Source of the DNA: Acidobacteriota bacterium
GTDB lineage: Bacteria > Acidobacteriota > UBA6911 > RPQK01 > JADFOI01
DNA: 64,000 nucleotides
Assembly (NCBI GenBank): GCA_963663035.1
Contig: OY760074.1
Location: 352,001 to 416,000 of the forward strand
Reading direction: 5' to 3'
Below, piece after piece: positions 9,477 through 48,908 of the stretch. Every line of letters starts with the position of its first letter. Positions within the stretch are counted from its first letter, which is position 1. The translations under genes were made by a program, and so were the position numbers. The notes below the pieces were generated by a model. That model searched no databases, was not told where the DNA came from, and worked only from the letters and a program-made list of their open reading frames with translations.

Positions 9477-10742
9477 TGACCTGCCCCCACGAACGAGTCC
9501 ACCCTCTATGCTAGACCCGGGACCATTTGAAGTCCACTCCAAGGGATTGGATCCAGTGCCTGCGACCTAGGTAGTTTGGCCTCTGGCGCCGGCGGCCGAT
9601 AGGCCAAGGCGCTGTGAGGCCGGATCTGATTGTAATCCCTCCGCCAGCGTTCTACCAACACCTTGGCTTCCCCCAGCGTGTCGAAGATCTCCATGTTCAG
9701 CAGCTCATCCCGTAGTTTCCCGTTGAAACTCTCAATGTACCCATTCTCCCAGGGGCTGCCCGGCTCGATGTACAAGGTCCTTACCCCAACAGCCTGCAGC
9801 CAGTCCCGGACCGCCTGTGCCGTAAACTCCGATCCGTTATCGGACCGGATAAACTCAGGCACTCCCCGATCAACGAATAACTCCGCCAGCCGGTCCAACA
9901 CGTCTTGGTGATTCATCTGCCGTTTCACATCAATGGCGAGGCACTCTCTGGTGTACTCATCCAGGATCGTCAATAGCCGAAAGGCTCGCCCATCATGGGT
10001 CCGTTCATGCACGAAATCATAGCTCCAGACGTGGTTCTTGCGAGCCGCTCGTAACCGAACACAGGAACCGTCATTAAGCCACAGCCTCCTTCGTTTCGGC
10101 TGTCTGGACGGGACTTTCAGCCCTTCTTGTCTCCACAGCCTCTCCACCCGCTTAGGATTCACCTTCCACCCTTCCCCATGAAGTATCGCCGTGACCCGCC
10201 GGTAGCCATAACGCCCGTATTGCTTAGCAACTCCACCATCCGGGCCACCAATCGGGCCTCATCATCGGGAATTTGCCTTTCCCTTCGCTGGGTCGATCGA
10301 ACCTGTCCCAGCACTTGGCAGGCCCGACGTTCGGAGACTCGCTCTGCTCCTAATCGCTCTCGTACCCACATCACCGCTCGTCTCCTGTTCGCCGGGCCTA
10401 GAAGTTTCCCGAGGACACTTCCTTCAGGATCTGCTTGTCCAAAGACAGATCCGCCACCAGCTTCTTCAACCGGGTATTCTCCTTCTCCAACACCTTCAAC
10501 CTCTTGGCCTGGTCCAACCGGAGCCCTCCGTACTCTTTGCGCCACCGGTAGTAGGTCTGCTCGCTCACCCCCATCTGCTTCGACACCTGTCCCACCCTCT
10601 GTCCTTGGGCCAGACCCACCTCTGCCTCACGCAGCTTCATGATGATCTGTTCTGCCCTAAACCGCTTCCCTGCCATCCTTGCCTCCTTCCTAAACCGGAA
10701 ATCCTAACATTCAAACTGGACTCGTTTTAGGGGGCAAGGTCA
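9477..10742 (-). mobile_element. IS3-family element, copy 1 (orfB frameshifted)
   Basis: Terminal IRs TGACCT(T)GCCCC...; 4-bp TSD CCTC (9473-9476 / 10743-10746). orfA 10398-10676. orfB is broken near 10225 and the element is 1 bp shorter than copies 2 and 3. Confidence 0.95.
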
Positions 10743-11127
10743 CCTCTCATCAAGATTCTTAACATGGTCAGCCCAATGCTTTTCGAACAACTCGCGGTAC
10801 AGCCCTGTCGGTCACCTACTAGAGGCAATTTCCGTTCCAGAGTTTCCAGGCTGACCCGTGAAATCTGCTAAACCGCCTGCAGTTCAGGGATTTGTAGACC
10901 GATAGCGGGAAGTCGATTTCGAGCAAGGCCCTTGATTTCTCCCACAATTGTCAACGGAAGTTTACAGAAATATTCTGTGGGTGCAGACCGCCGAGGCGGG
11001 TACCACAACTTTTAAAGGAGCCCGAGGGCGTGCTAGACTCCGGCTCTAACCCCGCAAGGCTTGCAGTAGAAATATGCTCTGTAGCTTGTATCGGAATTGC
11101 CGCAAGTCCTTGAAAAAGAGAGTGGGT

Positions 11128-11204
11128 CGGGACGTGGCGCAGCCTGGTAGCGCACCTGAATGGGGTTCAGGGGGTCGGAGGTTCGAATCCTCTCGTCCCG
11201 ACCA
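11128..11204 (+). tRNA. tRNA-Pro (GGG)
   Basis: 77-nt cloverleaf, anticodon arm CCTGA-ATGGGGT-TCAGG, T-loop GGTTCGAATCC, encoded CCA. Confidence 0.97.
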
Positions 11205-11213
11205 ATCTCGAGG

Positions 11214-12510
11214 GGTGCATTCCGGACACATAGGTTACAGTTTATTCCGAAGACATAGGTAACACCTTTGCACCAAAAGGGTTATTTATAGGTTCAAACC
11301 TTCTACTGTCTTCGTCAAAGTAACCGAGGTCGTATTCCATAAACGACACCAGCCAAATTTTCTCTTTGACCTCTTTGATTCCAACATCTTGACCAGCAAA
11401 CACCGTGCTGAAGTTGATCTTTTGACTTTTCATACAGATTCTGCCGCAGCTGGTGACGGTCACGGTGCGATCGTGCATGGGGTACTCGACGCGCCCGATT
11501 CCTCGGTAGGGACAAGATGCGGGAGTATAGACCTCGGACGGAAACTTCATGCCCAGGGCCTCATGAGGTCTCTCAGTATTGTATTCCGCCTGAAAGGCAT
11601 TAAACCTCTCTTGCTGCTGAAGAAGGTTGTGGGCAGCGGGAACGACTGTGGCCTTCTTGAGGGTGAGATGAAGGCGCTCATGCCTTCCGTTCTGCTCGGG
11701 ATGGCCGGGCTTGATCCTCTCGATTCGGATTCCTAGCCTAAGCCACCAGACGGCCAGTCGACTGAGTCCAAACAATCCGTTGGGTGATGCAAAAGGGACT
11801 CCGTTGTCCGTGCGGATCGCTTCCGGCAAACCTAACTCTTGAAAGGTTCTCTCGAATACGGGGAAAGCACCTCTTTCCTTAACACTGTCGAGAGCCTCGA
11901 TGGCGAGCAGATAACGGCTGGCGTGATCGCTCACGGTGAGAGGATAACAGTACCGTTTGTCTCCCAGCATGAACTCTCCTTTGAAGTCGGCAGACCAAAG
12001 GTCATTGGGATTCTGGCTGCTGGACAATCGAGTCCCCTCTGCCTTGAACCGTCGCCGTTTTCTACAGTTCACCAGGCCGTTGCGATCCAGAACCGCGTGA
12101 ACTGTGCTCACCGCAGGCGGCCGTACATTCGGAAACCTACGAATCAGGAGCGCCCGAATCTTGGGAGCTCCCCAATACGGCTTCTCTCGCTTTAGCCTGA
12201 CCAGGGTCCGTTCCACCTGTTCGGGCAGTTGGTTTCCGTAACGATGCGGCTTGCGGCTCCGATCCACCAGGGCGTAAGCGCCGGTGTTTTGATAGCGGTT
12301 CCAAATCTTGTAGCCCGTCTTTCTGGATATCCCAAACTCCTCACACAGACGGCTCATGGACTCCCCATCCAACAGCTTCGCTATAAATCTCATTCTCTCG
12401 TCCATCACACAGATCTCCTTCCATGGCATCTCTGGGCACCTCCCAGAAGAAGCCTATAAGTGTTACCCATGTGTCCGGTATAATTTGTTACCCATCTTTC
12501 GGAATGGGCA
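11214..12510 (-). mobile_element. IS481-family element, copy 1 (intact)
   Basis: 395-aa HTH+DDE transposase. Ends carry repeated TGTTACC(C/T)ATGT-like motifs. 3-bp TSD AGG (11211-11213 / 12511-12513). Boundaries confirmed by comparison with copy 2. Confidence 0.93.
11242..12429 (-). CDS. IS481-family transposase (integrase core domain)
   Basis: MPWKE...GISRKTGYK, WSADFKG, IRTDNG, PEQNGRHER. Confidence 0.93.
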   Translation of the reverse strand: MPWKEICVMDERMRFIAKLLDGESMSRLCEEFGISRKTGYKIWNRYQNTGAYALVDRSRKPHRYGNQLPEQVERTLVRLKREKPYWGAPKIRALLIRRFPNVRPPAVSTVHAVLDRNGLVNCRKRRRFKAEGTRLSSSQNPNDLWSADFKGEFMLGDKRYCYPLTVSDHASRYLLAIEALDSVKERGAFPVFERTFQELGLPEAIRTDNGVPFASPNGLFGLSRLAVWWLRLGIRIERIKPGHPEQNGRHERLHLTLKKATVVPAAHNLLQQQERFNAFQAEYNTERPHEALGMKFPSEVYTPASCPYRGIGRVEYPMHDRTVTVTSCGRICMKSQKINFSTVFAGQDVGIKEVKEKIWLVSFMEYDLGYFDEDSRRFEPINNPFGAKVLPMSSE

Positions 12511-12551
12511 AGGCTTTCCCCCAATGGCAAAAAATGTTTAGCTCATATTCA

Positions 12552-14810
12552 ATGAAGGCAGGAGTCGAGCACGATAGAGTATCGGCTTTCGGAATCAGGC
12601 GGGTTGTCTTTTTTGTCTCGTGTCTCTGTCTGATGCATCTCCTGCACTTTAGTACTGCTTCCGCGCAGAATGTTCCGGTCGGCGATGGTGAAAAAACTGT
12701 GCGTGTGGTACGGGTTGAATCCCCGCCCATCATTGACGGCATATTGGATGACGCAGTTTGGGGACAAGCCGAAATGATCACCGACTTTCATCAGATCCGA
12801 CCCGGAAATGGTACAGAGCCTTCCGAGCCGACAGAGCTGTATCTGATCTATGACGATGACGCGATCTATATCGGTGCCCGCATGTACGACAGCGAACCGG
12901 AGCGGATCGCGGCGCCCACCGTTAGACACGGTCAGGGCCTGGGGAGAGACGATCGTATAGTGGTCATCCTTGACCCGTTCAATACACGACGGGGTGCCTA
13001 CCGCTTTGAGACGAATTCCAATGGCGTGCGGCACGATGCCCTCTACAAGAGCGTGAGCTCCTTTGATAGTGCATGGACAGTCATCTGGGATGTAGCGGCG
13101 ACCGTTTACGAGGACGGCTGGATGGCTGAGCTGGCGATACCTTTTAAGACCTTGCCTTTTGATCCATCGATCGATACATGGGGTTTTAACTTCGGGCGAG
13201 GGATCCGCCGCCGCGGCGAAGAGGTTGCCTGGGTGTCTCGCAATCGCAGCTATGATGCCAGCATCTTGGGGTCCGCAACCGGACTGGAAGGGCTGGACCA
13301 GGGCAGGGGCCTGGACGTCGTACCGTCGGTCTCCCTCAACCGACAGAACACCTATTCCCCATCGACAACAGATTCTAATTTTGATCCGTCATTGGATGTT
13401 TACTATCGGATCACGCCGTCACTCAATGCGTCATTGACGGTCAACACCGACTTCTCAGCGGCCGAGGTGGATGACCGGCAGGTCAATCTCACCCGCTTCA
13501 ACCTTTTTTTCCCCGAGAAGCGCGACTTCTTCCTGAACGACGCTGATCTGTTCGAGTTTGGAAGAATTGGCGGTACTGGGAATAGTGCGAGCTCAAGGTC
13601 AAGCAACAACAACGGGCGGCCGTTCTTTTCCCGACGACTGGGGCTGAGCGGGTCGGGAACACCGGTTGACCTGAAGTTTGGCGGCAAGCTCAGTGGTAGA
13701 GTGGGACCCTGGAACGTGGGTATGTTGGCGATGCGCCAGGATGCCTTTGAGTCCGTAGATGAAAGCACCGTGTTGGTGGGACGGGCCTCGGCCAACGTGC
13801 TGGATGAATCCAACCTAGGCATGATGGTCACGGCTGGTGACCCGAACTCCAATCTCGATAATGTTCTCGCCGGCGTCGATTTCCGCTACTTGAATACTCG
13901 CTTTCCCGGTGGTCGAGTTCTGGAGGCTGATGGGTGGTATCAGCAATCGGACACAGAAGGTCTGGAGGGTCAGGACTCCGCATTTGGCCTGGGAATGAGC
14001 ATACCGAGCAACACCGGGTGGCGCGGTGGTCTCTACCATAAGCAAGTGGAGACAAACTTCAATCCTGCGCTCGGATTCGTCAGCCGTTCGAACGTTCGGG
14101 ACACGACTGCCGACATGGGTTATACCTATTTCACGGGAGGTGGTTTCGTACAGGAGATTTTCTCTGGCTTTGACGTACAGCGCATCGGGTTCCTGGATGG
14201 CGGACTGCAGTCACAGGTTGTTCTTGGGCGGCTGGTCGAGATCCAGACCAACTCCAGGGACCAGTTCAGTGTTCACTACACTGCCACTAAAGAGGCAGTG
14301 ACGGAGCCGTTCACTATCTATGAGGATAATTCACAACAGGTCATTGTCCCACCTGGCAGCTACTCATTTGGTGAGACTGCGGTAAGTCTTGCAACGGGAA
14401 GGCAGCGAGATGTTTCTGGTGGGATGACATTTCGAACCGGGGATTTTTTCGATGGTACGCGACAGGATATCGCTGCAAATCTTTCCTGGAGGCAATCCAG
14501 GTACTTTAACTTGTCGGTCTCCTACAACCGAAACGACATCAAACTCCCCCAGGGGGATTTCGTCACCCATTTGTCGAGGCTCAACACCGGGGTCAACTTT
14601 TCCTCGACCGTGTATTGGGTGAACCTTGTTCAATACGATAATGTCTCCGAAGTGATAGGGGTTAATTCCCGTCTCGTATGGATACCGACCGCGGGTCAGG
14701 AAGGTCTCGTTGTCCTGAACCACAGGCGTCAGGACAGGGACAGGGACGGCTCATTCAGTTCCGAGTTGACGGATATTAACGTCAAGCTGAGTTACACCTT
14801 CCGCTTCTAG
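12552..14810 (+). CDS. DUF5916 / CBM9-like-domain outer-membrane protein
   Basis: Signal peptide, IDGILDDAVW, NTDFSAAEVD, FFPEKRDFF, C-terminal YTFRF beta-barrel signature. The ORF-track start lies inside the IS. Confidence 0.85.
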   Translation: MKAGVEHDRVSAFGIRRVVFFVSCLCLMHLLHFSTASAQNVPVGDGEKTVRVVRVESPPIIDGILDDAVWGQAEMITDFHQIRPGNGTEPSEPTELYLIYDDDAIYIGARMYDSEPERIAAPTVRHGQGLGRDDRIVVILDPFNTRRGAYRFETNSNGVRHDALYKSVSSFDSAWTVIWDVAATVYEDGWMAELAIPFKTLPFDPSIDTWGFNFGRGIRRRGEEVAWVSRNRSYDASILGSATGLEGLDQGRGLDVVPSVSLNRQNTYSPSTTDSNFDPSLDVYYRITPSLNASLTVNTDFSAAEVDDRQVNLTRFNLFFPEKRDFFLNDADLFEFGRIGGTGNSASSRSSNNNGRPFFSRRLGLSGSGTPVDLKFGGKLSGRVGPWNVGMLAMRQDAFESVDESTVLVGRASANVLDESNLGMMVTAGDPNSNLDNVLAGVDFRYLNTRFPGGRVLEADGWYQQSDTEGLEGQDSAFGLGMSIPSNTGWRGGLYHKQVETNFNPALGFVSRSNVRDTTADMGYTYFTGGGFVQEIFSGFDVQRIGFLDGGLQSQVVLGRLVEIQTNSRDQFSVHYTATKEAVTEPFTIYEDNSQQVIVPPGSYSFGETAVSLATGRQRDVSGGMTFRTGDFFDGTRQDIAANLSWRQSRYFNLSVSYNRNDIKLPQGDFVTHLSRLNTGVNFSSTVYWVNLVQYDNVSEVIGVNSRLVWIPTAGQEGLVVLNHRRQDRDRDGSFSSELTDINVKLSYTFRF

Positions 14811-45057: not shown

Positions 45058-45134
<77 letters not shown>

Positions 45135-45143
45135 CCCGCTTAT

Positions 45144-46890
45144 GGTGCATTCCGGACACATAGGTTACAGTTTATTCCGAAGACATAGGTAACACCTTTG
45201 CACCAAAAGGGTTATTTATAGGTTCAAACCTTCTACTGTCTTCGTCAAAGTAACCGAGGTCGTATTCCATAAACGACACCAGCCAAATTTTCTCTTTGAC
45301 CTCTTTGATTCCAACATCTTGACCAGCAAACACCGTGCTGAAGTTGATCTTTTGACTTTTCATACAGATTCTGCCGCAGCTGGTGACGGTCACGGTGCGA
45401 TCGTGCATGGGGTACTCGACGCGCCCGATTCCTCGGTAGGGACAAGATGCGGGAGTATAGACCTCGGACGGAAACTTCATGCCCAGGGCCTCATGAGGTC
45501 TCTCAGTATTGTATTCCGCCTGAAAGGCATTAAACCTCTCTTGCTGCTGAAGAAGGTTGTGGGCAGCGGGAACGACTGTGGCCTTCTTGAGGGTGAGATG
45601 AAGGCGCTCATGCCTTCCGTTCTGCTCGGGATGGCCGGGCTTGATCCTCTCGATTCGGATTCCTAGCCGCAATTATTCATAAGTTTGGGGTAGCCTAGTT
45701 CAGGGCTGAGAGTGTGTTCACGATTACAGGCGACTTGTTGAGCCAGTCGAGCCCCTGAGCTCGGCCCCAAACAATCCGTTGGGACACAGACGGGGTGATG
45801 CAAAAGGGCACAGATCCGAGAAGTTCCCGAACCCGGGCACCGGTGAGTCCGTGCTGTTGATCCGGCGGCGGAGCGTCTCAATCTCCAGGTTGTGCCAGGG
45901 AGTCCCGCACAGGTAATCCCGCAGGCGCAGGATTAAGACATAGGCCAGGGCGTGGATGAAGAGTCGGAACTGGTTGGCCAGGAAACGGTGGCAGCTCAAG
46001 CGATCCATGGCCAGATCTTTTTTGAAAGCTTTCACGAAGTTCTCGCACTGGCCCCGTCCGATGTAGTGGTCATACAGCTGCCCGGCCGTGAGATCCTGGC
46101 GGTTGGTGACCACAAAGCGACGGTTGAACCCGCGCTCGCTCACTTCCACCTTGGCCACCATGCGCCGCTCCCGGTCCCAACTGTCGGCCGTGCGGATCGC
46201 TTCCGGCAAACCTAACTCTTGAAAGGTTCTCTCGAATACGGGGAAAGCACCTCTTTCCTTAACACTGTCGAGAGCCTCGATGGCGAGCAGATAACGGCTG
46301 GCGTGATCGCTCACGGTGAGAGGATAACAGTACCGTTTGTCTCCCAGCATGAACTCTCCTTTGAAGTCGGCAGACCAAAGGTCATTGGGATTCTGGCTGC
46401 TGGACAATCGAGTCCCCTCTGCCTTGAACCGTCGCCGTTTTCTACAGTTCACCAGGCCGTTGCGATCCAGAACCGCGTGAACTGTGCTCACCGCAGGCGG
46501 CCGTACATTCGGAAACCTACGAATCAGGAGCGCCCGAATCTTGGGAGCTCCCCAATACGGCTTCTCTCGCTTTAGCCTGACCAGGGTCCGTTCCACCTGT
46601 TCGGGCAGTTGGTTTCCGTAACGATGCGGCTTGCGGCTCCGATCCACCAGGGCGTAAGCGCCGGTGTTTTGATAGCGGTTCCAAATCTTGTAGCCCGTCT
46701 TTCTGGATATCCCAAACTCCTCACACAGACGGCTCATGGACTCCCCATCCAACAGCTTCGCTATAAATCTCATTCTCTCGTCCATCACACAGATCTCCTT
46801 CCATGGCATCTCTGGGCACCTCCCAGAAGAAGCCTATAAGTGTTACCCATGTGTCCGGTATAATTTGTTACCCATCTTTCGGAATGGGCA
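45144..46890 (-). mobile_element. IS481-family element, copy 2, interrupted by partial IS1380 sequence
   Basis: Matches copy 1 outside 45667-46187. 3-bp TSD TAT (45141-45143 / 46891-46893). Confidence 0.92.
45667..46187 (-). mobile_element. Partial/mosaic IS1380 inserted at CTAG inside IS481
   Basis: Starts with IS1380 IR CCGCAATTATTCATA after CTAG (45663-45666). About 45690-45860 interleaves IS481 and IS1380 pieces; about 45862-46187 is clean IS1380. Confidence 0.8.
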
Positions 46891-46897
46891 TATCGGT

Positions 46898-48803: not shown

Positions 48804-48835
48804 GGAGATTCCTTTCTGTGCTCGTCAAAATCAAG

Positions 48836-48908
48836 TGCGCCTGGCAGGACTCGAACCTGCGGCGCAGGGGTTAGGAACCCCTTGCTCTATCCTCTGAGCT
48901 ACAGGCGC
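48836..48908 (-). tRNA. tRNA-Arg (CCT), CCA not encoded
   Basis: GCGCCTG acceptor stem, anticodon arm AGGGG-TTCCTAA-CCCCT, GGTTCGAGTCC. Confidence 0.95.

Follow-up and report, generated by a model that had tools for sequence, protein, structure and literature searches.

The window studied here is a stretch of 64,000 nucleotides (nt) from an Acidobacteriota bacterium (GenBank assembly GCA_963663035.1, contig OY760074.1; positions C1:352001-416000 of a single-contig genome of 3.59 Mb, here called G000). It contains two copies of an insertion sequence (IS) of the IS481 family, each directly behind a transfer RNA (tRNA) gene for proline. The copies in this genome and their relatives in other bacteria show that integration is site- and orientation-specific at +9/+10 from tRNA 3' ends, with a 3-bp duplication and without a second gene. 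Targeting covers tRNA genes of almost any isotype and not only tRNA-Pro, to which the initial annotation had tied it: the occupied genes in G000 are three for Pro and one each for Ala, Ile, Phe, Met and Gly, and 14 isotypes were found family-wide. On balance we favour, with moderate confidence, the view that the element belongs to a widespread IS481-family clade with target-site specificity, in which the transposase or transpososome itself reads the duplex DNA of the tRNA gene. The strongest form of this proposal, that a single transposase of 395 amino acids reads the DNA from T arm to CCA of any bacterial tRNA gene in about ten phyla, without a partner or a guide RNA, has in our judgement even chances of being right.

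Genes for tRNA were called with ARAGORN, which found three in the window: tRNA-Pro(GGG), tRNA-Pro(CGG) and tRNA-Arg(CCT). The first of these is the target of copy 1, which has the following features (window coordinates, strand, description and source).

11128-11204, + strand: tRNA-Pro(GGG), intact, CCA encoded, target of copy 1 (ARAGORN, sequence)
11205-11213, + strand: spacer of copy 1, 9 nt from CCA to the IS tip; its last 3 nt, AGG (11211-11213), are the left target duplication (sequence)
11214-12510, - strand: IS copy 1, intact, 1297 bp (alignment, BLAST)
11214-11263, + strand: tRNA-proximal end of copy 1 (left inverted repeat, IRL), tip GG, with direct repeats of about 20 bp at 11219-11238 and 11244-11263 (sequence)
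11242-12429, - strand: transposase, 395 amino acids, with two predicted helix-turn-helix (HTH) domains, an RNase-H/DDE core and a C-terminal beta-barrel (Pfam, NCBIfam, AlphaFold2, Foldseek)
12461-12510, - strand: distal end of copy 1 (right inverted repeat, IRR), tip TG when read inward, two repeats of about 20 bp, upstream of the transposase start codon (sequence)
12511-12513, + strand: right target duplication AGG of copy 1 (sequence; an empty-site contig with three letters in common)

Both copies in the window start 9 nt past the CCA of a tRNA-Pro gene, at 11214 and 45144, and have the same orientation, as the initial annotation had stated and as ARAGORN and alignment show again. The open reading frame (ORF) of copy 1 at 11242-12429 runs antisense to tRNA-Pro(GGG). 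The spacers of the two copies are unrelated by alignment, and each copy has its own 3-bp duplication, AGG and TAT respectively. The element had earlier been given as ending at 12513; its start at 11214 stands, but the true end is 12510, and 12513 takes in the duplication. The GG tip on the tRNA-proximal side was seen again, and the repeated motifs described at the ends resolve into two direct repeats of about 20 bp at each end with a spacing of 25 bp. The stop codon of the transposase (11242-11244) falls within the IRL. Only 28 bp and 81 bp of the 1297-bp IS are non-coding, and the rest is a single ORF. Copy 1 is 100% identical with eight further full-length copies in the genome.

A BLAST search with the IS across the genome found 12 copies and two short remnants. 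Nine copies are full-length and 99.9-100% identical, one has 94% identity and deletions, one is the interrupted copy 2 and one is truncated to nt 1-797. Six copies lie 9 nt past an intact tRNA gene (Pro-GGG, Pro-CGG, Pro-TGG, Ala-CGC, Met-CAT and Gly-GCC) and two lie 10 nt past the gene end given by ARAGORN (Ile-GAT and Phe-GAA). Although tRNA-Phe is encoded without CCA, the IS is inserted 23 nt past its T box, the same distance as at the genes with a 9-nt spacer. Three further copies lie 9 nt past a tRNA 3' fragment. The first of these fragments is a duplicate of Pro-TGG, with the intact gene about 11 kb upstream; the second is of the Arg type, about 3 kb away from tRNA-Arg(ACG); and the third is a pseudo-copy of tRNA-Gly(CCC). 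The concern that the other genomic copies might lie away from tRNA genes was not borne out, with 11 of the 12 copies at tRNA 3' ends or fragments; the transposase of each of these 11 runs antisense to the tRNA or the fragment. A perfect 3-bp duplication flanks eight of the 11 copies that have both ends. With 51 tRNA genes called by ARAGORN in 3.59 Mb, a random insertion would be expected at such a position about once in 10^5, and the association of the copies with tRNA genes is not due to chance.

Relatives in other bacteria were searched for by a back-translated pattern scan of one genome per species, which gave 364 matches confirmed by tblastn; the best 80, with 63-94% identity, were kept. 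According to the record titles these 80 loci represent about ten phyla, namely Acidobacteriota, Alpha-, Beta-, Gamma- and Deltaproteobacteria, Bdellovibrionota, Planctomycetes, Elusimicrobia, Gemmatimonadota, Verrucomicrobia, Nitrospira and an actinobacterial lineage. In 50 of them the end of the protein match is followed, at a distance of 41-61 nt, by a tRNA gene that ARAGORN called on the opposite strand. The isotypes among these 50 are Pro, Thr, Ser, Arg, Asn, Gly, Phe, Met, Glu, Ala, Ile, Val, Lys and Asp. Spacer and tip could be scored via the first end repeat in 48 loci (L124 and L125 lack the motif). The spacer from CCA to the tip is 9 nt in 28 of the scored loci, 10 nt in 17, 11 nt in two and 12 nt in one; the tRNA-proximal tip is GGT in 45 and TGT in three, and CCA is encoded in all 48 targets. 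At the distal end the tip is TGA, TGC or TGT in 55 of 55 loci, a set that had been filtered for a TG tip.

A strict pattern consisting of a T box, 12-13 nt, CCA, 9-12 nt and the IS tip fits 62 of the 80 loci. Among these the spacer measures 9 nt in 36, 10 nt in 22, 11 nt in three and 12 nt in one. The offset is therefore 9-10 nt in 58 of 62 pattern-fitting loci, and a single orientation is seen throughout. The 30 loci without an ARAGORN call were inspected by eye. Sixteen of them have a fragment with T arm, acceptor and CCA 9-10 nt from the tip and three have a degenerate fragment, while in six the flank is at most 64 nt long because the contig ends; in L121 a flank of 79 nt shows the 3' part of a tRNA-Gly. 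Where tRNA genes are clustered (L058, L109, L114 and L124), the IS is behind the last tRNA in all four. Transfer-messenger RNA genes were considered as a further target, but none was found within the 80 loci. Tabulation of isotype, distance and orientation in G000 and in the relatives gives one rule, a distance of 9-10 nt in most loci and a single orientation. The earlier proposal of a single-gene DDE element with a ruler-like offset and no separate targeting gene agrees with 11 of 12 copies in G000, 62 of 80 relatives and the presence of one ORF.

Some members are found on plasmids of cultured organisms. A tRNA-Arg(CCG) gene of Sinorhizobium meliloti, which is reportedly essential and translocated to pSymB, has a 5'-truncated member (amino acids 25-395, 66% identity) 10 nt past its end in S. 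meliloti 1021 (locus L153, NC_003078.1:1315300-1316412). A full copy lies 9 nt past tRNA-Arg(CCG) on a plasmid of R. leguminosarum, and a Methylocystis plasmid has a copy adjoining a tRNA-Glu-like fragment. A protein search returned 'putative transposase' and similar designations only, and the plasmid annotation gave no ISfinder name for the element.

Mobility of the element is supported by empty sites. In the related genome G001, the sequence downstream of the orthologous tRNA-Met agrees with that of G000 except that ACT is present once and the IS is absent. In G001, G002 and G006, tRNA-Pro(CGG) is followed by a terminator-like hairpin and an acylphosphatase-like gene, again without an IS. 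G006 is the only relative with the right flank of the tRNA-Pro(GGG) site, and it has no tRNA there and is uninformative as an empty site. The tRNA-Gly(GCC) and tRNA-Phe genes were found in relatives by their left flank, and the right flank from G000 had no match there.

Contigs of four public sequencing runs were compared over 10900-12900 of the window. One contig of run X2 bridges 11210 to 12511 with three letters (AGG) in common and with 34 letters on the shorter side; its depth is 14.3, compared with about 16 for the flanks. It is a precise empty tRNA-Pro(GGG) site in a near-identical strain. In the same runs, contigs internal to the IS are 6-11 times deeper than the flanks. A loose end in run X1 shows another tRNA 3' end, 9 nt and then the IS tip. 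Another X1 contig extends 30 letters into the IS from the right flank, which is below the 31-letter rule, and was not counted as bridging. Uncovered parts of the stretch and runs with a small share were not used as evidence. The empty site in X2 and the nine near-identical copies show recent transposition, and mis-assembly of the junctions, which had been named as a possible objection, is ruled out by the empty-site contig together with the independent loci. Over 11330-12510, runs X1, X2 and X4 also contain a second variant of the IS with about 5-7% differences and a contig depth similar to or higher than that of the identical variant.

As a control set, IS481 homologues were taken from 41 related genomes. 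Among homologues with at least 52% identity, L018 adjoins tRNA-Ile, and L019, L021 and L034 adjoin tRNA-Arg-type 3' ends. At 18 loci with 33-46% identity ARAGORN found no tRNA within about 1.5 kb, a search that did not screen for fragments. In a FastTree phylogeny of 85 sequences, which omits nine of the 80 loci because of in-frame stops and two outgroup loci, 72 clade members are grouped apart from 13 outgroup sequences (support 0.896, stem length 0.60). We propose a tRNA-gene-flank-targeting clade within IS481. Its members are at least about 63% identical to the present transposase, have tips of GGT or TGT and two repeats of 20 bp at either end, and lie with the tip 9-12 nt from the 3' end of a tRNA.

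The transposase matches the Pfam families HTH_28, HTH_32, LZ_Tnp_IS481, rve and rve_3. It passes the NCBIfam equivalog model for IS481 (NF033577) by a small margin, with 226.5 bits against a cut-off of 224 over amino acids 12-301. It misses the NCBIfam models for IS3 (102.9 bits, cut-off 160) and ISNCY_2 (NF033594; 39.6 bits, cut-off 250) and fails that for IS630. A structure predicted with AlphaFold2 from a 40-sequence alignment has a mean predicted local distance difference test score (pLDDT) of 80.7. The approximate residues of its predicted domains are 11-55 and 70-116 for the two HTH domains, 144-300 for the RNase-H core and 321-380 for the beta-barrel. The top Foldseek matches are IS21 IstA (8b4h, E = 4.6e-15), type V-K TnsB, the integrases of foamy virus, Rous sarcoma virus and human immunodeficiency virus, MuA and Tn7 TnsB. 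The C-terminal domain had been suggested as a candidate target reader, and modelling did give a distinct domain there, the beta-barrel, but no dedicated target-reader domain is visible in the predicted structure. Conservation of the C-terminal tail is not interpretable because the tail is coded within the end repeat.

In the mechanism that we propose, the transpososome would read the T-arm box GGTTCRANNCC and continue through the acceptor 3' strand to CCA, all as duplex DNA. This is the only part that is common to all tRNA genes. The active sites would be placed about 23-24 bp 3' of the T box. The GGT-tipped end (at the 3' end of the transposase gene) always faces the tRNA, and insertion takes place 9-10 bp downstream of the CCA end. 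No accessory protein or guide RNA appears to be encoded by the IS. The tRNA is kept intact, and the site is thereby a safe harbour offered by every genome. The tRNA terminator would be displaced, and read-through from the tRNA promoter, antisense to the transposase gene, could damp its expression. Such antisense read-through into the transposase gene is likely because the tRNA is kept intact while the downstream terminator is displaced. A simple scan of 11000-12700 for terminators and promoters at the IS ends gave none of either and supports no conclusion.

Direct reading of the DNA by the protein appears most likely to us. It is favoured by the validity of one rule in about ten phyla, by the tRNA-Phe case, in which the distance from the T box is retained in the absence of CCA, and by a T-loop bias of the occupied genes in G000. 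Several observations weigh against it or against the generality of the rule. Not all loci conform: homologue L020, with at least 52% identity, has nothing tRNA-like alongside, and four of the 80 loci are without a tRNA-like flank, three with truncated tips (L050, L089 and L093) and one, L106, with a tip that is not truncated. In L050 a tRNA-Val is present at the opposite end, 94 nt upstream from where the transposase starts. In G000, no tRNA was called beside the diverged copy at C1:2823572, and the copies at 774802, 1209868 and 1924976 (three of 11) lack a perfect duplication. Family-wide, the 3-bp duplication was found in only 30 of 66 loci when each tip was allowed to vary by 1 nt, compared with 5 of 66 in a control displaced by 5 nt, and this count includes several loci in which automatic tip calling failed. 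There is no tRNA-Leu among the 50 targets called by ARAGORN, which is unexplained. The tRNA 3' fragments start at the anticodon loop, which is typical of island attachment (att) sites; they may have been split off after the IS had inserted and are hence no proof that a fragment suffices as target. The conserved DNA of tRNA genes also sets the fold of the RNA. Finally, a preference suggested by G000 is not general: position 6 of the T loop is A or T in all eight occupied genes and in 23 of 43 unoccupied genes (Fisher p = 0.016, post hoc), but TTCGAGT or TTCGAGC loops are present in 12 of the 62 family targets. The contrast for CCA is weak, with CCA encoded in seven of eight occupied and 26 of 43 unoccupied genes of G000 (p = 0.23).

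The one serious alternative, although we consider it rather unlikely, is that targeting is indirect and that the transposase is tethered at the active tRNA gene by the nascent tRNA, by RNA polymerase or by a processing or termination factor. T arm, acceptor and CCA are structural in the RNA too, and a DNA-reading protein and a nascent tRNA or host factor are inseparable by sequence because the same nucleotides fold in the RNA. In all cases the element is oriented according to the direction in which the tRNA is transcribed. Nothing corresponding to the IS-end binding motif is found in the target, and a role for XerC has been proposed for ISAjo2 (PMC10132070). The position behind the last tRNA in all four clusters also agrees with tethering, but it fits selection against polar insertions equally well. 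Fold relatives identified by Foldseek point the same way, since Tn7 TnsB, IS21 IstA and the retroviral and Ty integrases rely on partners. However, a moving polymerase offers no obvious ruler of 9-10 bp, and a distribution over about ten phyla speaks against the need for a host protein confined to one lineage. Promoterless 3' fragments adjoin the IS at about 19 of the 80 loci and at three G000 copies, although the IS may have been inserted there before the fragments were split off.

It is very improbable that the tRNA gene mimics the ends of the element and that the HTH domains responsible for binding the 20-bp end repeats also bind a similar sequence within the gene. IS911 and IS30 are said to insert beside sequences that resemble inverted repeats, and two repeats per end, 25 bp apart, could leave spare binding modules in the transpososome. 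Part of the repeat faintly resembles the T loop by eye. A weight matrix was derived from 124 end repeats and run over the 60 nt upstream of the tip in 62 targets, and the best mean was -36, compared with an average of +28.8 for real sites and -52 +/- 13 for a shuffled background; no match at a fixed offset was found on either strand. Mimicry was rejected on the basis of this matrix, which finds nothing in the tRNA region. As the target has no end-repeat motif, direct reading would therefore involve a surface of the protein other than the one that binds the ends.

An absence of targeting is hardly credible: random insertion with survival of the harmless cases, or carriage of the IS on tyrosine-integrase islands, would agree with tRNA flanks being known island hot spots and with the att-like tRNA fragments beside three G000 copies and about 19 of the 80 loci, but it is refuted by the spacing, orientation and duplication data, in that a 9-10 nt spacing and one orientation, as seen in 62 of 80 independent loci, cannot result from selection, the unit that moves has 1297 bp, a 3-bp duplication of its own and no recombinase inside, precise empty sites exist, and nine copies are at least 99.9% identical and hence recent.

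The second copy in the window and the remaining tRNA gene are arranged as follows.

45058-45134, + strand: tRNA-Pro(CGG), intact, target of copy 2 (ARAGORN, sequence)
45135-45143, + strand: spacer of copy 2, 9 nt; its last 3 nt, TAT (45141-45143), are the left duplication (sequence)
45144-46890, - strand: IS copy 2, oriented as copy 1, transposase gene broken (alignment, BLAST)
45669-46187, no strand assigned: foreign segment of 519 bp in place of IS nt 526-594 (alignment, BLAST)
46891-46893, + strand: right duplication TAT of copy 2 (sequence)
48835-48908, - strand: tRNA-Arg(CCT), unoccupied, CCA not encoded, T loop TTCGAGT (ARAGORN)

The initial annotation was right that a second copy is present at tRNA-Pro(CGG) and that the tRNA-Arg of the window has no insertion, but copy 2 is not intact, with a foreign segment of 519 bp in place of nt 526-594. 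At the end of this segment, 325 bp are identical to an internal stretch of another IS, which has about 30 copies in the genome and a reading frame that matches Pfam DDE_Tnp_1_4. Two copies of that IS are in the window, at about 20973-21297 and 30457-30781 (G000:C1:372973-373297 and 382457-382781). The other 194 bp are unique in the genome and include two short bits of the missing IS stretch. The mosaic of 519 bp is in frame with the transposase throughout, and it may be a scar of repair or rearrangement or a chimera of the assembly. At the same site in relatives (L157, L159 and L160) a terminator-like hairpin is present between tRNA-Pro(CGG) and the acylphosphatase-like gene. The hairpin is gone from G000, where apart from the IS only about 13 nt separate tRNA-Pro(CGG) and the acylphosphatase-like start codon.

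Other copies in the genome also have unusual surroundings. At C1:1677922-1678900, a pseudo-copy of tRNA-Gly(CCC) with a 4-nt deletion in the D loop is followed by a 9-nt spacer, nt 1-797 of the IS, 2 nt and an intact tRNA-Gly(CCC). The downstream site of the intact gene is itself empty, and the origin of the duplication and the truncation is unexplained. In the segment C1:763305-776098, tRNA-Pro(TGG) with its IS copy is followed, after about 10 kb, by a duplicate of the 3' part of this tRNA that starts at the anticodon loop, and then by a second IS copy, which is flanked by ATC and CTC without a perfect duplication. The segment looks like an integrated island bounded by two targeted insertions. 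A remnant of the distal end, 86 bp long and with 89.5% identity, is found at C1:1927752-1927837, about 1.5 kb beyond the tRNA-Ile copy, which itself has no perfect duplication. There may have been an older, diverged insertion at the tRNA-Ile site. An element with 94% identity is present at the same tRNA-Ile in G004.

All eight copies at intact tRNA genes are on the + strand of the contig, where only 22 of the 51 tRNA genes are located, and this is unexplained. Replication-strand bias was considered and rejected. GC skew places the origin at about 3.20 Mb and the terminus at about 1.22 Mb, and on this basis the occupied tRNA genes are co-directional with replication in one replichore and head-on in the other, and no consistent relation is seen. 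About 5-12 nt past CCA, the unoccupied Asn, Arg-TCT, Arg-CCG, Arg-TCG and Ala-GGC tRNA genes share a T-rich motif with TCAAT or TCAGT at its end. Four tRNA-Leu(TAA) genes are without CCA, and three of them have near-identical flanks. A terminal overlap of the contig, considered for two tRNA-Ser(TGA) genes with identical flanks, is unsupported, as an ungapped comparison gave 36% identity.

Insertion sequences are very abundant in the genome. An IS3-type element (HTH_Tnp_1 OrfA and rve/rve_3 OrfB) occupies 9506-10676 of the window, about 450 bp upstream of tRNA-Pro(GGG), and the same OrfA sequence splits a diverged IS481-like copy near G000:C1:830 kb. Upstream of tRNA-Gly(GCC) there is a repeat of about 200 bp (L004:740-936, G000:C1:2946547-2946742), which has at least 40 copies at 75-96% identity in G000 and dozens in each of six relatives of the genus. 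It may be an element of the MITE type (miniature inverted-repeat transposable element).

The element described here is a target-specific IS with a new and unusually universal target. In the literature covered, including the available parts of PMC2700814, PMC11406308, PMC5994717, PMC11837538 and PMC9208149 but not the ISfinder and TnPedia entries, there is no IS481-type or other one-gene DDE IS that homes to tRNA flanks. We think it possible, if rather doubtful, that the specificity for tRNA flanks has already been noted somewhere. ISGme8 and ISGme9 of Geobacter were considered as tRNA targeters and ruled out, as putative IHF/HU sites are given for them instead in PMC2700814. A plain one-gene IS shows orientation-specific homing, in many phyla, at a fixed offset to a site that is present in dozens of copies in every cell, and this makes it a tractable system for studying how an enzyme with an integrase fold measures the distance from a recognised DNA feature. 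If our proposal is true, it is the most compact universal safe-harbour integration system known. The element may also serve as the basis of a minimal, broad-host-range tool for safe-harbour insertion. For annotation, the consequence is that IS481-family genes beside tRNAs, including the one at tRNA-Arg of S. meliloti pSymB, are targeted insertions and not island boundaries.

By sequence and organisation the element is a member of the IS481 family with an unusual GGT tip and 3-bp duplication. It shares with IS481 and IS1002 a single DDE (rve) transposase with an N-terminal HTH and a leucine-zipper region, a length of about 1.3 kb and imperfect inverted repeats. It has a single ORF without programmed frameshift, in contrast to IS3, and is small with inverted repeats and a short duplication, both of which fit the family. 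Duplications in the IS481 family are 2-15 bp as quoted from ISfinder, mostly 6 bp, and the tips are mostly TGT...ACA (PMC10045372). Unlike most members described there, the element here has a 3-bp duplication, and its tRNA-proximal tip is GGT in 45 of 48 loci.

Judged by behaviour, the closest described case is IS1202/ISAjo2, a single-gene element that inserts 5 bp from the XerC side of dif/pdif in one orientation (PMC10132070). The two also share the domain order of the transposase, with two HTH domains followed by an RNase-H fold and a beta-barrel, and both have a second, internal binding site per end, a duplication of 3-5 bp and no helper genes. The target is different, dif/pdif instead of a tRNA gene, and ISAjo2 has a length of 1.5 kb, a transposase of 441-457 amino acids and TGT/ACA tips (PMC10132070). 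Contact with DNA-bound XerC is suggested for ISAjo2 (PMC10132070). By sequence, the transposase studied here falls outside that family, as it does not match ISNCY_2. At bacterial tRNA genes, no DNA-bound protein of the XerC kind is known.

Site-specific DDE transposition usually needs extra proteins (TnsC and TnsD in Tn7, IstB in IS21) or guide RNAs (CRISPR-associated transposons, IS110). The present element resembles the Tn7 type in its safe harbour, its orientation and its set distance from the target, and the TnsB fold is among the top Foldseek matches. Tn7-like and CRISPR-associated transposons home downstream of conserved genes, tRNA genes included (PMC11406308). In contrast to the present IS, with one gene and 1297 bp, the Tn7-type systems use TnsC with TniQ/TnsD or Cas with a guide RNA and span many kb. 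The 28 bp and 81 bp of non-coding sequence in the IS leave no room for a TnsC-type ATPase or for TniQ/TnsD.

Islands and phages with tyrosine integrases also choose the tRNA 3' end, and they occupy the same loci. They recombine within the gene, rebuild its 3' part and duplicate the fragment, whereas the IS is outside the gene, uses a DDE enzyme and makes a 3-bp duplication. A DDE transposase as the only enzyme and insertion outside the tRNA gene set the element apart from tyrosine recombinases.

Among eukaryotic elements, the rve integrases of Ty3, Ty1, TRE5/TRE3 of Dictyostelium and DGLT-A are sent to tRNA genes, which are safe havens in gene-poor surroundings. The conserved T-arm stretch is also what makes up the B box of eukaryotes. 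The eukaryotic elements are tethered by Pol III factors (TFIIIB, TFIIIC and Pol III subunits), insert mostly upstream and move via an RNA intermediate. Bacteria do not have the Pol III machinery, and the IS described here, unlike these retroelements, is a DNA transposon that inserts downstream. Mobile elements have evolved homing to tRNA genes repeatedly, and the IS is one more case, from bacteria. If the proposed mechanism is true, the clade is an independently evolved bacterial counterpart of the homing of Ty3, Ty1 and TRE elements to tRNA genes.

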